Assembly: GCA_964016885.1 (NCBI GenBank)
Contig: OZ024745.1
Span: 62,310,001-62,374,000, forward strand
From: Eledone cirrhosa
Lineage: Eukaryota
Reading direction: 5' to 3'
Length of the DNA stretch: 64,000 nt
The position numbers and the translations under genes were made by a program. Shown one piece after another: positions 16,745-63,616 of the stretch (positions within the stretch are counted from its first letter, which is position 1; each line of letters starts with the position of its first letter). The notes below the pieces were generated by a model. That model was not told the origin of the DNA. It saw only the letters and a program-made list of their open reading frames with translations, and searched no databases.

Positions 16745-16828
16745 ATAGTGCAAATTTATACGGGAACAAAACAGAGAGGCAGACAAATAATGGTTTATTA
16801 GGTTCACGCATAAGCCCTTCTTCAGGAG
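16745..16828 (-). mobile_element. Retroelement 3'-end cassette in (TA)n with a decayed hammerhead-like motif
   Basis: Minus strand CTGAAGAAGGGCTTATGCGTGAAC followed by AATAAA; bounded by TA tracts. Confidence 0.45.
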
Positions 16829-18126
16829 TATATATATATATATATATATATATATATATATATATATATATACGTGCGATTCTATCTAACACACACAAAG
16901 AATCACACGTGCTTATGTGTCATAAACATGTAAATAATATCATCGTCATGGCAATAATAATCATTTATTAGAGTATGTATACAGGATGTTAGTTTGATTC
17001 TAACATACACACTTTCGCGAACACATTTATACACAAAAAGATTACAAAGAAATAGGCACGTCTGCACACACGCACCACCAGACACACATACAAACACATT
17101 CACTCACAGATACACACACACCTATATATCCACACACTATAGGTTTATATGTGTGTGCTCTCTTTCCTTCTAATCAATACCATGCCTATAATGGCTAACT
17201 ATTCATCTATGATGATGATTGATGACAATGATGAAGGGAGAATTATCTTCATCATCTTAAACATGATTATAAAGAATTATGATCATTACACGTCATCATC
17301 ACCTAAGTTATCTGACTATTTTAGTCGCCGTCTTCATCATCGCCATCGTTTACATTTCATTAGATACACTCTCATAGGTTTATCGGATATTTACAAAAGA
17401 AATATATCAAATACTGTCGAAGATTGAAATCAGTTATATCACTGAAATATGGATGTAGTTTTTCTAATTTTACCATCTGCTTTCCTCTAATCGTCGTCCA
17501 CCAGATCAAGAAATAGAAGAGAGGATGCGTTCTATTTACATAGTATTAAATGTCCCTCTTTTGCTTCTAGCTTCTGCCTAGTTACCGATGCCCTTTTTGT
17601 CAATGGTTAAGGCTGGATAATAGTGAAATTTGATGTTCTTGTTGAACAACTTCAACTTGACAGCGTTCATTGATGTAGCTCTTCGTTCCGATTAGGATTT
17701 CGTAAATGTGTCAGCGAGTGTTATAAATCGGAATATTCTACAAATGCTTTTTTGTTATTAAAAAAGTGTGTTTTATAGTTACTATTAATTTTCCATTCAT
17801 GCAAATCGTATCCTATTTGAAGAACCTTCTTCCGACTGCATTATTCATGACGGAAACGAAGATGAACATAGCTTAAACGCATTTTATTACACATCTTATT
17901 CACGGCGGCAAGCAACACATATCAACTACCAGGCAGCAGTTCATTAATTGTATAAATTATATATATTTTGGCTTCCACCTTTTATATATCTATATATACA
18001 TATACACGCAGACACACACACACACACATACACACACACATATATATGTATATATATATATATATATATACATTATTCCGGGTTGAATCGGAGGTAACCA
18101 CAGTAAGTAAGGTACTCAATACATTT

Positions 18127-18177
18127 AGATTCCTGATGATTTCTAAAGAATGAAACAGTTCTAGTCCTGTAGAATCT
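18127..18177 (+). ncRNA. Type I hammerhead ribozyme candidate
   Basis: AGATTC-CTGATGA-T TTC TAAA GAA T-GAA-ACAG TTCTAGTC CTGT-A-GAATCT. Helix I 6 bp, helix II 3 bp with a U-U pair at 10.1/11.1, helix III 4 bp, GUA cleavage triplet. Confidence 0.75.
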
Positions 18178-18181
18178 CATC

Positions 18182-18287
18182 TATATATATATATATATAT
18201 ATATATATATATATATATATATATATATATATATATATATATATATATATATATATATATATATATATATATATATATATATATATA
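18182..18287. repeat. (TA)n microsatellite
   Basis: Directly visible. Confidence 0.98.
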
Positions 18288-18656
18288 GTGGTAGAGCATG
18301 GTTTGCTAACTGTTGGGGAGCTAACTTTGTATATATATATGTGCATATGTGTCCGTGTTCATGTGCGGGCTTGCGTTTGTGCGCCTGCACACTCGCACAC
18401 GTACACATGAACAGCCACACATCTCTGCCAAACATACATGCAAGCATCCACACGCTCACACATATGTACGAACACACTCCCATAAACAACACATTTAACG
18501 CCCACACATGTAAACGTACCGTAATCTGCTCCCCACAAACACACAAACACCCAGTGCAAATCGGCCTAATACCCCTCATCCCCACCAGAATGCCGGACCA
18601 CTCCCCCTCTCTCCGTTATGTTTTTATTTTTGTAATTTCTGCCTAACGTTATAAGG

Positions 18657-18965
18657 TGTGAGCCCCGCGAGTTGGAGTGGCTTTTCCAGCGCGTCTCCCT
18701 TGCCGTTCTTCGGGGAAACGCCTTCTCCATTCTGTCAGCCGGGGCTGTAAGTGGGCCCCATCGCGTACCAATACATTAGTTAAATACCATTCTTTCATCT
18801 GATATAACACCTTTTAGATCCTACTTCAATTTATTTAGTTTTATTTTTGGCATTTTTCATTCTTTAACGTTATTTTCTTTGCTATTTTCTTTGCTATTTT
18901 CATTTTATGCCATTCCTGATGAAGGGAATATGTTGACTATGAAAGATTTTTATTCTGAAATCTAC
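18657..18965 (+). mobile_element. 3' end of a CRE-like (RLE-type) non-LTR retrotransposon with putative 3' UTR
   Basis: Translation CEPRELEWLFQRVSLAVLRGNAFSILSAG matches the CRE-clade C-terminal motif (G)EPRExxWLFQRLSxAxxRGNA. An AT-rich tail follows with CTGATGAAG-GGAATA...TATTCT-GAAA. Confidence 0.65.
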
Positions 18966-59849: not shown

Positions 59850-60315
59850 ATTTATATATTTCATATATATATATATATATATATATATATATATATATAT
59901 ATATATATATATATATATATATATATACATATATATATATATATATACATATATATATATATATATATACATATATATATATACATATATATATATATAT
60001 ATATATATATATATATGATGGCTGCACACCCTGTTAACAGTATTGCAATTGCTTATCAGATTATAGAGTTTGGTGCACCTTTAGGCTACGGCCAGTCATA
60101 CCAAAGTGTAACAGGCAATGCCTGGGCTTGGAAGCATTTTTAAGTGGGGAAAGGCCTCTGAGCATCGAAAACACTACCCGAAAAGGAGAACTGGTCAACA
60201 TCATCGGATGCTTCCGAAGCTGCAGGTTTTTATTTTAGAATTTCCCTCTGATAGAAAGGTGTTGTGACAAGAACTGGGGTCCTTTTGCTCCCATATATAT
60301 ATATATATATATATT

Positions 60316-60410
60316 CACACACACACACACACACACACACACACACACACACACACACACACACACACACACACACACACATACACACACACACACACAC
60401 ACACACACAC
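60316..60410. repeat. (CA)n microsatellite
   Basis: Directly visible. Confidence 0.97.
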
Positions 60411-61032
60411 ATATATATATATGAATAAATAGCAATTTTCCTTAAATATCCTCGGATATTCTAATTTTGAAATTCAGTTACCCTAACGGAAATTATTTTC
60501 ATAATAAATAATTACTTTAAAAGAGGTTGGATGAAGTTGCATTGTAACTTGATCAACTATATCAAAAATTTCTAAACATCAATCGGACGAGGAGCATGCT
60601 CCATTATGGTTATGGGAGATGTGTAGATGCACGCGAGGAGTCGGAAAACTTAATAGTCGCTGCACAAGCTTCGTTGTGGTGGTGTATGTGTAATGAATAT
60701 TATAGCAACATTTGATGTCAACCATCACCGGATATGCTTGGTAGCCTTAGGATCTTCAAAAACGCATGAGATGAACATCCTTACATGCCAACTGTATGAT
60801 GTAGATTATATGCGCACAAGCATGATACCTGTAATAGCTTTACTTACCGTTATGGATGAAGCTACATCAACAAATAGATGTGTACGCATATCGTATATGT
60901 GTATGTATGAATTATATGTACACTCTCACACATACACAGCCGTAGAGCCTCCTTTCGGTTTTATTGAGCTAGGTAACTGATCCGTTCTTCTACAAGTTTA
61001 GTAACGGAACGTTTATTTATTGTAAAAATGTT

Positions 61033-61148
61033 CTCTCTCTCTGTCTCTCTTTCTCTCTCTCTCTCTCTCTCTCTCTCTCTCTCTCTCTCTCTCTCTCTAT
61101 ATATATATATATATATATATATATATATATATATATATATATATATAT
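61033..61148. repeat. (CT)n(AT)n compound microsatellite
   Basis: Directly visible. Confidence 0.97.
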
Positions 61149-63410
61149 GAATCTATCTATATATTTCTATCTCTGTATATATATATGTTTGTACTTGTTT
61201 AAATATGTACATATATTTCCAATTCCGTCAATCTTCGTGGATATGGAAACATTTAGTACATGAATGTAATATAATAGTTGAAATCTATTTTTCTTGCGCA
61301 TTATAAATTAGTGTTTTAAACAAACAATCATATGGTGGACACCACCACCACCCCTTCAAACACACAATCGCACATTCACTGTCTTATTAGCTCTCACATA
61401 ATCTGCTAAATTAACATCTTGTTGATAGAGAATACATATTTCATGTTTGTGCTTATCGATCAGACAAGATTTATTAAGCAATATCTGGAGTACATTCTAT
61501 GCAGTATCATTCTATAAATGAATATTTCTGTATGTCAAATGTTCTATTTTCTAATTGCGAGAATGGCATGGGACGTTTCTTCTATGAGAAATATGAATGA
61601 TTTTAAGAGTTAAGTAATGTTCTCTCCGCAACAAGAGGGAGATTGTATTGTTTGATAGACCTGAAGAGCAGAGGCGTGAGATGGCAAAATGCCACAATTT
61701 CATCTTTAGCAGAACAGCACTGGCGCCTGCTGTTCAATTCAAATCACATGTAAAGTCGGAGAAGGAAATGCTGACTACAATCACCATTATATTTCTTAAA
61801 ATCTTGGTGAAAATATCGAGAATCACCCGACTCAATACGCTTACCCAATGCATGCGACTATAACTGGAGATATTTGTGAGTTGTTCCGTACTATTGTGCT
61901 CTTGACGATCGGTGTTCTTAAATTATGCCTGAGTCTTGCTCCCTTTATTAAAGAATTGTGTTATCGATATATTCACTTCGTGTTTCTGTCATAGTGGTCA
62001 GTAACAAACAGGAATAGCAGTATCAGACAACTGTCTTTGCCACATATAATTATGTCCTGTTACATTCTGTATTCAAATACCTCCGTGGTTAGCTATGCGA
62101 TTCATACTTATGGGAGTATGTTTGACCCCCCCCCCCCAAAAAAAAATATATATATATTTGAGAATATTATTTCAGATATTGTATCACATAGAGAATAGAG
62201 AAGCTGATATAAAAGATCCATGCACAATAGTATCATCTTTCTTCACCATCAAAACTTTAAAGCTTATTACCATATTTTTTTCCTGTAACCAACATTAAGT
62301 CGTTTAATAACATTTCTCTTCTGCCTATATTACTACTACGAAATTTCAAACGCAAAAACATGCTCAGTAGTTACAAATCTTATCTGTGATTGCTAATATA
62401 CATAAATCATTTGTTTTCTCTTTGTCTAGAGAATTTCTACCGAATATAGAAATCGTTTGTGTTTTTTTCTCCTTTATGTATTACCTGACAATATATTTTT
62501 TTCAAGTTGATATCTCCTCAAGAGTCTTATATTCCATAAGTCTTTGAAACACCATCTTTTTTTCCTTTGAGAAATACAATTTCCTTCATGTCTTCACGTA
62601 TCCTTTATAATATTATTTTGATTTTTAATTTTATTTTTGCTTGTCCTTATTGAATGTTTGTCTTTTTTTTAATAACCTGTCATATTATGGTATGTTATAC
62701 TCCATATTCTTGCTTTAAACCGGCAATAAAATACCGGGTGAACTGACACCTTTTTTTATTTTTCTTGAACTTTAAATCGAGCAAATGTTATTTGAGAGAT
62801 AGAGTTAAGTGTAATGCAGGAAGAACCATGGATCTTTACTTTAGTAGAGTAGCCTCTGTAATCGTAATTAAAATTAGAAGTGTTAGCAAGTAGCAATAAT
62901 TTAACAAGTGGTACTTCACGTGGAACTAGAATTTTATTTCCGTCATTTAATGACACAACTATTGCTTATCAATTTACCTTGAAAAAAAGGAAGATATAGC
63001 TGCCAAGTATATTTCAAGAAATTAATTAAAATTATTTTAATAGAAAAAGGTGTGAAGTACTGCTGAGTTAATGAGATTGATCGACATGTGTAAGACGCAA
63101 TTAATAGGTTTCTGATCTTCATCCGCAATATACATTTTTTTTTTTTTGGCTTATTTCATCATTAATTAATTAAAACTATACATATTTAAAGTACTCACAG
63201 ATATATACACATACACACACACACATATATATATATATATATATATATATATATATATATATGTGTGTGTGTGTGTGGGTGTGTTATTGTGCGTCTGTGT
63301 CTGTATGTTAGAGTGTATATAAATGCATCTTTGTGAATTTGTGGGCGCGTCTGCTTGAGTGTGTGCAAGTGTCTTTCAGTGAGAAAGCGTATATATATAT
63401 ATATATATAT

Positions 63411-63616
63411 ACACTTCCTCGTGCTCTCGACTCTCGAATTCGGTCTCACTTCCGAGTGTCGGGCCTCGTACCTACATGTTCTCTCCTTCTCCAAACTTTC
63501 CTGGCGAAGGATTTCAGTTCGAAACGTTGAACCATCCTCCAATTCCTCTATGCGTGTCTCTAATTAGACTTTGAACTTTTGCATTCCTGTATTTGTTTTG
63601 TTTTATTTGTTCAACT
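63411..63616 (+). mobile_element. Penelope-like 3' end cassette with a minimal hammerhead-like motif (63497-63531)
   Basis: TTTC-CTGGCGAA-GGA TTTCAG TTC-GAAACGTT-GAA; same architecture as 56965; lies between (TA)n and (CA)n. Confidence 0.55.

Follow-up and report, generated by a model that had tools for sequence, protein, structure and literature searches.

A stretch of 64,000 nucleotides from the genome of Eledone cirrhosa (contig OZ024745.1, positions 62,310,001 to 62,374,000; hereafter the window) had been described in an earlier sequence-only reading as carrying about a dozen hammerhead ribozyme motifs in a dispersed family of small cassettes embedded in microsatellites. Our data suggest a different view of these sites. 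We consider it likely that they are insertions of many families of Penelope-like elements (PLEs) next to (TA)n, and that two units among them (37390-38025 and 57147-57728), which encode no protein and are often repeated in tandem, contain a hammerhead of rearranged block order (type SGC) that likely self-cleaves and likely stems from the 3' ends of Naiad PLEs. Several high-copy non-coding families with PLE-type ends have a conserved and covarying S-G-C fold. While the ordinary PLE ends in the window represent already known biology, the re-reading of the sites at 37400 and 57283 as type SGC is new.

Rearranged hammerheads at 37400 and 57283

At both sites the conserved blocks follow one another in the non-circular order cut site, GAAA, CUGANGA. 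The conserved core (CUGANGA, GAAA and NUH) is kept: the site at 37400, formerly taken for half a motif, is a complete and intact hammerhead of S-G-C order, and the one at 57283, formerly listed among the hammerhead motifs, is a decayed copy of the same order with two core changes (U16.1 and A9). The former lies in a 635-bp unit of a family that we call H (37390..38025, minus strand, (TA)n on both sides), which is non-coding (longest ATG open reading frame (ORF) 51 aa), pyrimidine-rich and retrozyme-like; the best 39 other matches are 99-100% identical across the 231-bp query. Its hammerhead (37398..37503, minus strand) is built from helix I (37450-37455 with 37413-37418), helix III (37457-37461 with 37432-37436), P1 (37498-37501 with 37401-37404), the hairpin P2 (about 37477-37497), P3 (37472-37475 with 37441-37444) and P4 (37465-37470 with 37420-37425), with GAAA at 37436-37439, CUGAUGA at 37406-37412 and a cut that is predicted, by analogy to other hammerheads, between 37456 and 37455. 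The site at 57283 belongs to family E, an old non-coding unit of ~485 bp that is present in the window along with part of a second unit (57147..57728, minus strand, 81% pairwise identity); judged by its altered sequence, the hammerhead of this copy (about 57250-57365, minus strand) is likely inactive.

All fetched copies of family H end about 15 nt past CUGAUGA and continue into TA or into the next unit, with no downstream GAAA partner; the GAAA and NUH blocks pair with this end from upstream. An SGC descriptor yielded 28 matches in 619 kb of query-enriched loci versus 0-1 in 10 shuffles, and four matches in 600 kb of evenly spaced genome stretches versus none in each of 20 shuffles. Genome-wide searches with exact patterns, compared to a reversed control, gave 7,259 versus 0 matches for family H, 200 versus 0 for family M, and 981 versus 7 for families N, O, P and others taken together. 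Family H therefore stands beside several sister families. The covariance model R1 matches only its training copy within the window and misses the E copy, and the SGC family count is to be read as a lower bound. Other arrangements were rejected: the blocks at 37400 do not pair as a type II or type III hammerhead, and three SCG matches and one GCS match in the 600 kb of spaced stretches are near shuffle levels (maxima of 2 and 3).

Six helices and a candidate four-way junction

For the alignment we used 24 of the 34 H and 16 of the 23 M sequence types, seven M types being excluded, five of them with a loop insertion. Across these 40 rows, the six named helices pair in 93.5% of the cells, versus 82.1% in shuffles and at most 48.6% when the partners were slid. 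Helix I pairs in 99%, helix III in 97.5%, P4 and P3 in 97% each and P2 in 94%; P1 reaches 71%, because M is offset by one column. Cells with changes on both sides number 182 versus 64 in shuffles, and both sides have changed in five of the six pairs of helix I and two of the five pairs of helix III. The comparison between families provides the stronger covariation argument: eight representatives have six helix I and five helix III pairings, which keep Watson-Crick or GU pairs around an almost invariant core, and the P3 and P4 pairings differ as well around the same core.

The letters after CUGANGA form one side of P1, and those before GAAA one side of P3; the partners of both are on a strand upstream of the cut site, which also folds into the hairpin P2. 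According to our structural model, P1-P2-P3 would form a four-way junction on the core, which usually replaces stem II. Since direct stem II is usually replaced in this way, we regard the motif as a variant and not as a plain member of type SGC. Direct stem II is present in some copies of family N (L349, L332) and has 3 bp in family E. A direct long stem II in H was rejected as out of register among subfamilies, and the lengths of P1 and P3, being best-of-many maxima without control, were discarded as evidence. The motifs of family N vary (L349, L332, L333, L338, L339, L351, L358), with either a direct stem II of 5-6 bp or P1 without P2, which suggests intermediates between the two architectures.

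On the other side of the core, helix III passes via a 3-nt bulge into P4, and P4 reaches helix I with 0-1 nt between them. The kink-turn consensus consists of a 3-nt bulge followed by tandem G.A/A.G pairs, and in the H and M subfamilies the loop letters fit it in spite of differing flanking helices; a bend here is putative. At the same position, family O has Watson-Crick pairs and family E a 2x4 loop. Folding of the window's H copy recovers P1, P2, P4 and helix III, folding of family O recovers P1-P4 with helix III, and the nested helices are recovered in H1, H3 and O.

Non-coding carrier units

H units have a length of 528-756 bp with a longest ATG ORF of 33-119 aa, and they occur singly, inverted or in tandem. 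Tandem copies are spaced at 445-737 bp, in arrays of up to nine units. Identity within the H1 subfamily is 99%, and tandem units are also present in M and E. At their 3' ends, 43 of 46 H copies run into TA or a tail, compared to a TA background of 3.5%. Units of families H, M, E, N and O have no protein-coding capacity and contain no ORF with an N-terminal GIY-YIG endonuclease and a C-terminal reverse transcriptase. Being non-coding, they are not autonomous Naiads and could at most be derivatives of them. No RNA data set was listed for the H unit. Assembled contigs of two sequencing runs (one sample) cover the H unit; this may be the assembly's own sample, the ends are not visible, and the contigs were not used as evidence.

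Type SGC was defined, and its cleavage and stem II dependence shown, by Eckert et al. (2023; PMC10085705). The rearranged ribozymes come from assembled metatranscriptomes (Supplementary Note 1), from which 583 type-SGC sequences are known whose host element is not known. Octopus, Metazoa and Mollusca are not mentioned in the supplement text that was searched, and our literature search, in which subscription journals were thinly covered, turned up no account of an SGC ribozyme in an animal genome or a transposon. Like the published motifs (HRIMA-1 and SGC variants), ours have the S-G-C order with a complete core, both helix I and helix III, a short connection between helix I and GAAA and, on the helix III side, a peripheral helix that is attached almost without a linker. 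In contrast, the published ribozymes have a real stem II and a stem I-II helix, where the P1-P2-P3 junction usually stands in the units described here, and only in the latter does P4 pair with sequence 5' of the cut site, together with a kink-turn-like loop in H and M. Furthermore, the published sequences are metatranscriptomic (PMC10085705), whereas the SGC motifs found here are chromosomal and present in thousands of copies, with cleavage as a prediction.

A second known system is that of the metazoan non-long terminal repeat (non-LTR) retrozymes, which are non-coding tandem units with one hammerhead each (Cervera and de la Pena, 2020; PMC7229834; bioRxiv 10.64898/2026.07.22.740005). Our units share these features as well as low GC and kinship to PLEs. 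However, the metazoan retrozymes of these sources have type I hammerheads and units of 150-450 bp and were demonstrated as circular RNAs, whereas the units here have type SGC and a length of about 445-800 bp.

Relation to Naiads and search for an autonomous carrier

The comparison with Naiads (Craig et al., 2021; PMC8557442) was done by eye on a partial view of the supplement, covering 58 of 62 CTGATGA contexts and about 44 of 54 record ends. In that paper, Naiads are stated to lack canonical hammerheads, with only cores and half cores flagged, the half cores on either side. In the 3' region of ten of the published consensi from five phyla, we recognize the same SGC fold, with S-G-C order and helices I and III (records Amil, Aacu, Anas, 2_Movir, Plae, EuTe, Obim, Ovul, Esco and Bfor; these are from Beroe, three Acropora, Morbakka 2, Pomphorhynchus, Eulimnadia, two Octopus and Euprymna). 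Helix I is weak in Bfor (Beroe), P3 lies directly before GAAA in most of the ten records, and P1-P2-P3 is perfect in Acropora, Plae and EuTe. The Octopus records have the kink-turn-like loop and the hairpin-loop letters in common with H, and the loop letters also with N. Besides the fold, Naiads and our units share the preference for (TA)n, partial tandems, inverted 5'-truncated copies and tails; Naiads encode protein and the units here none. On this sequence comparison, descent of the SGC units from Naiads is quite likely. The displayed 3' ends of bivalve and hemichordate Naiads contain a different conserved motif of ~50 nt, a hairpin with flanking pairing, which may be another ribozyme or a cis element (PMC8557442 supplement).

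In the genome of E. cirrhosa itself, Naiads are present as decayed remnants only. The open frames of 59 protein matches are all at most 233 aa long, and no intact Naiad was found in the genome; reverse-transcriptase motifs of Naiad gave three decayed copies versus one in the control, and a longer pattern gave none. Searching for an autonomous SGC carrier, we obtained only PLEs with C-terminal endonuclease from the 30 best GIY-YIG loci and 20 long-ORF regions. Three SGC matches near these loci and regions were rejected as a sign of such a carrier, as they are H-family copies and apparently separate insertions, and the end motif of Octopus Naiads, used as a probe, hit one chance match and one family N cassette. 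Queries with Naiad fragments found nothing in three homologue searches and one viral-contig scan. The genome does contain intact-looking Neptune-type ORFs of 938 and 844 aa from stop to stop. Neptune-type PLEs (L393-L412) have long, microsatellite-filled 3' untranslated regions, exceeding 900 bp in several, and no hammerhead was found near the ORF end in several of them.

Proposed cycle of the SGC units

In the mechanism that we propose, read-through or tandem transcripts would fold such that P2 is flanked by two pairings of the upstream strand, P3 with the GAAA side and P1 with the CUGANGA side. The four-way junction would then stand in for stem II, and the bent arm of helix III and P4 (3-nt bulge, with kink-turn-like G.A pairs in H and M) would return the chain to helix I. 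Each unit would be cut once after NUH, either in cis or with a neighbouring unit supplying the CUGANGA block, so that RNA of unit length is set free, which may be circularised; a PLE reverse transcriptase-endonuclease could copy this RNA into (TA)n. We infer a retrozyme-like cycle for the SGC units. Self-cleavage of the motif is quite likely; for published type-SGC ribozymes, in vitro cleavage rates of 0.007-0.19 per min were measured (PMC10085705).

Because no intact Naiad was found in the genome, the young H copies have probably been moved by intact Neptune-type PLEs or by an undetected Naiad. Trans-mobilisation of H by Neptune-type PLEs is the simplest guess, since these have intact-looking ORFs and Naiads are left only as remnants; we hold it tentatively, with slightly less than even confidence. 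In a wider evolutionary context, we lean towards the idea that Naiads, a widespread PLE clade of very high abundance whose protein domains are permuted, also bear an active permuted SGC hammerhead, with the four-way junction as stem II, which is conserved from ctenophores to cephalopods, and that they spawned retrozyme families of thousands of copies which have survived the Naiads they came from and are mobilised today by other PLEs.

Counter-evidence and alternative explanations

Several observations weigh against the reading of the SGC units as self-cleaving descendants of Naiads. With regard to covariation, the rows of the H/M alignment are related and two of five measures are not above shuffles: pairs with two-sided changes number 17 versus 15.0 in shuffles (51/500), and further pair types 29 versus 32.8. 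With regard to structure, direct stem II has at most two Watson-Crick pairs in 34 of the 40 sequence types, while the assayed SGC ribozymes possess and need it (PMC10085705). The connection of P4 to helix I by only 0-1 nt may strain the modelled monomer; the folding z-scores of four SGC copies are weak (-0.9 to -1.65), and those E and N copies that we tried did not fold to the model. A TA run is joined to H at the predicted cut site in 126 copies versus 30 and 21 at two control sites, an excess that speaks for the cut site but is confounded by TA microhomology of up to 5 nt there (about 2-3 fold per position). Among the Naiads, the nematode records show the ordinary order with CUGANGA before GAAA, and no SGC motif was seen by eye in the displayed ends of the bivalve, hemichordate and spider records. 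Moreover, three of the 21 Naiad stretches of this genome reach an apparent 3' end, and no SGC motif is recognisable in these three remnants.

Some of these points would fit an explanation in which the SGC fold is a binding or initiation element of the PLE reverse transcriptase, derived from a hammerhead but barely or not catalytic, that spread as partial tandems without ribozyme processing. Besides the missing direct stem II in most sequence types, the 5' ends of 66 fetched H copies are spread widely along the unit with no pile-up at the cut site, and insertion of a Poseidon PLE in vitro did not require hammerhead cleavage (PMC11167929), the latter being a further argument against ribozyme processing as proposed here. 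However, the whole catalytic core and NUH are kept among families whose helices share little sequence, although binding alone would need neither, and the cut-site letters in the representatives are always UA, UC or UU and never UG. We regard a mere binding or initiation role as unlikely.

Still less likely is an SGC motif that works as a ribozyme but has its origin in a viroid-like circular RNA, captured via reverse transcription, or arose independently in these satellites, so that the likeness to Naiad ends would be due to convergence or later capture by Naiads. This origin would agree with the metatranscriptomic source of the published SGC ribozymes, which lie on contigs with hairpin ribozymes (PMC10085705 supplement), and with the lack of a recognisable SGC motif in the Naiad remnants mentioned above. 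It is difficult to reconcile with the Octopus Naiads, which match H and N not only in the two loops but also in letters of the P1 region, and with the Naiads of other phyla, which have the same P1-P2-P3 junction that is missing from the published SGC motif (PMC8557442; PMC10085705). Outside this genome, the H pattern had no match in viral contigs and two chance matches in metagenomes. Finally, the explanation that all sites are ordinary or broken minimal type I hammerheads of PLEs, with half motifs at 37400 and 57283 and chance pairings upstream, holds for 10 of the 13 sites and is compatible with Rfam giving nothing at any of them, but is very improbable, as H copies stop shortly after CUGAUGA with no GAAA downstream, the upstream GAAA and NUH blocks pair and covary, SGC matches exceed shuffles in the unbiased 600 kb, and both the alignment and the representatives already contradict it.

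If the SGC reading of these units is true, no ribozyme with a non-circular permutation would have been known from animal chromosomes before. It would place type SGC there at high copy number, with the processing of tandem retroelement RNA as its proposed job, and it would overturn the stated absence of hammerheads for many Naiads and account for their "half cores". In practical terms, type I descriptors and Rfam would miss a whole class of genomic ribozymes and retrozymes. The proposed architecture, with a four-way junction for stem II and a bent return arm, would also be new and is represented by many natural variants, and it bears on what hammerheads do for PLEs.

Type I motifs and ordinary PLE ends

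The window has 35% GC, is rich in (TA)n and is part of a 3.0-Gb genome. Compared to 60 local dinucleotide shuffles of the window, type I motifs are above chance. The strict descriptor gave three matches (cores 18133+, 47964+ and 47632-) versus a shuffle mean of 0.03 (maximum 1), and with one core mismatch five matches were obtained (56970+ and 59845- added) versus 0.43 (maximum 3). The two loosest settings gave 10 matches each, versus 1.45 (maximum 7) and 3.35 (maximum 8). Reversed and complemented windows had 0, 0, 0 and 2 matches. In an Rfam scan of the window, none of the 144 matches up to E=10 was to a hammerhead model, and the matches themselves were rejected as microsatellite-driven noise. 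The window is not unusually dense in type I motifs but ordinary for its genome, because 29 type I matches versus 0.1 were counted in the 600 kb of spaced stretches, with a descriptor that differs from the one used for the window. This unbiased sequence (loci L269-L328) contains at least eight further type I families, many of them with long stem II insertions.

The genome was searched with 11 of the 13 sites, since 47563 and 47960 form one insertion and 20915 was compared only with the fetched loci. Ten of these 11 are members of large families, for which a first look gave 293 to 3,437 candidates per family, and all ten are multi-copy with the motif included. The exception is 18912: 39 genome matches besides the window's own stop by query position 135 and none spans the claimed motif, so that only the flank is repeated. 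The sites thus represent about eleven unrelated or distantly related families and not a single one. Of the dozen hammerheads once listed, the type I motifs thus stand above chance as a group, whereas 18912 is unsupported and 37400 and 57283 are not type I.

Most of the sites are 5'-truncated 3' ends of PLEs beside (TA)n, which is in line with what is already known of PLEs. Those with minimal type I hammerheads were reportedly described by Lunse and colleagues in 2017. Shared lengths across copies vary continuously, matching 5' truncation, and longer copies of families A, D and I have a GIY-YIG ORF upstream; most of the supposed small mobile cassettes are truncated ends of longer elements. For family A, 6 of 29 loci have this ORF upstream in the same orientation (515-642 bp away in five of those), as do 6 of 24 loci of family D (the endonuclease ends ~390 bp upstream in L096, L099 and L104) and 2 of 14 loci of family I, with Pfam matches that are weak and below cut-off. 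The proposal of several TA-associated, hammerhead-bearing and PLE-related families is borne out in this respect. For families B, C, F, G and K, no endonuclease was found inside the 1.5 kb flanks examined; F copies lie 1.6-2.4 kb behind the 938-aa Neptune-type ORF in L393, a putative linkage. Family D has a Cys-rich linker, a feature of the Neptune-type PLE clade (PMC8557442).

Variable 5' truncation, an inverted 5' copy, an optional 3' tail and a microsatellite target are PLE insertion traits that recur across all families here. The copies carry inverted 5' arms and end at the 3' side in either of two ways, which is the "tail" signature of PLEs (PMC11167929). The 3' ends adjoin TA in 16 of 18 copies of G, 13 of 16 of I, 16 of 22 of F, 23 of 46 of H, 12 of 24 of C, 25 of 59 of D, 13 of 40 of B and 6 of 18 of M, far above the TA background and in agreement with the (TA)n flanks noted before; in H, C, D, B and M, most of the non-TA ends run into the tail. 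Family A ends in CA in 24 of 34 copies and in TA in none. Different cassette families are stacked in the same TA runs in L004, L006, L008, L025, L027, L030, L037 and L049, which would fit several rounds of insertion at common targets. PLEs of Neptune type, or with another C-terminal endonuclease, that bear minimal type I hammerheads (Cervera and de la Pena, 2014) resemble families A, B, C, D, F, I and K in a type I motif near the 3' end, variable 5' truncation, tails and TA ends, and nothing essential differs. A U4C core is fixed in family F, and the CUGANGA block has been lost from family G.

Within the window, intact type I hammerheads are present, as originally read, in family B at 18127-18177 (18071..18181, plus strand, inverted tail and 3' end) and in both arms of a single inverted insertion of family C, the inverted arm at 47521..47781 (minus strand, hammerhead 47563-47636) and the direct arm with tail at 47786..48200 (plus strand, hammerhead 47960-48033). 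The motif of family F at 59803-59849 is near-intact; this young (99%) PLE-type 3' end (59597..59861, minus strand) has the U4C core CCGAAGA, which is fixed in 33 of 34 family copies, and most E copies likewise read CCGAUGA. Family A is represented by the 3' end of an endonuclease-bearing PLE (56732..57084, plus strand), whose minimal type I motif (56966-57001) has one core change compared to the CTGATGA of 31 of 33 family copies. The palindromic helix III pointed out earlier was recovered in families A and C.

The motifs listed at 56520, 20915 and 63497 do belong to type I families but are decayed: they lie in a Neptune-type 3' end with tail of family D (56371..56707, minus strand, motif 56520-56562), in an old relative of family A (20878..20949, minus strand, 79-82% identical to A over 72 nt) and in an old PLE-type 3' end of family K (63468..63618, plus strand, minimal motif 63497-63531). 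At 16801, the PLE 3' end of type I family I (16745..16828, minus strand) is present, but an internal deletion has removed the GAAA half. The half motif at 25669 indeed consists of GAAA and cut-site blocks only and belongs to the very abundant short element G (25655..25787, plus strand), for which no CUGANGA block was found in the family. G is the commonest cassette (29 matches per 600 kb, 114 anchors in the loci) and usually an inverted mini-element; it may depend on cleavage in trans, or it may be an inactive derivative. The GIY-YIG relic proposed at 30.7-31.2 kb was located at 30748..31161 (minus strand) as a decayed endonuclease with ~69% identity to that of family D, and fragments of the family D reverse transcriptase and linker lie in two orientations at 36539..36774.

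Other repeats in the window

A non-LTR retrotransposon, which we infer to be L1/Tx1-like, occupies 49935-55190 (minus strand) with a 789-aa frame containing RVT_1 and zf-RVT, an endonuclease-like frame and a 526-aa ORF1; a more decayed relative lies at about 31.3-36.3 kb. A very abundant repeat of ~200 bp that resembles short interspersed nuclear elements is found at 3253-3472, 29525-30332, 57918-58131 and 58813-58962, with ~30 loci matching each. At 26066-26747 there is a near-perfect inverted duplication about a TA/CA run with mirror-image ORFs, and a TA-rich run of ~1.45 kb (48242-49691) directly follows the family C tail and a (TC)n run.

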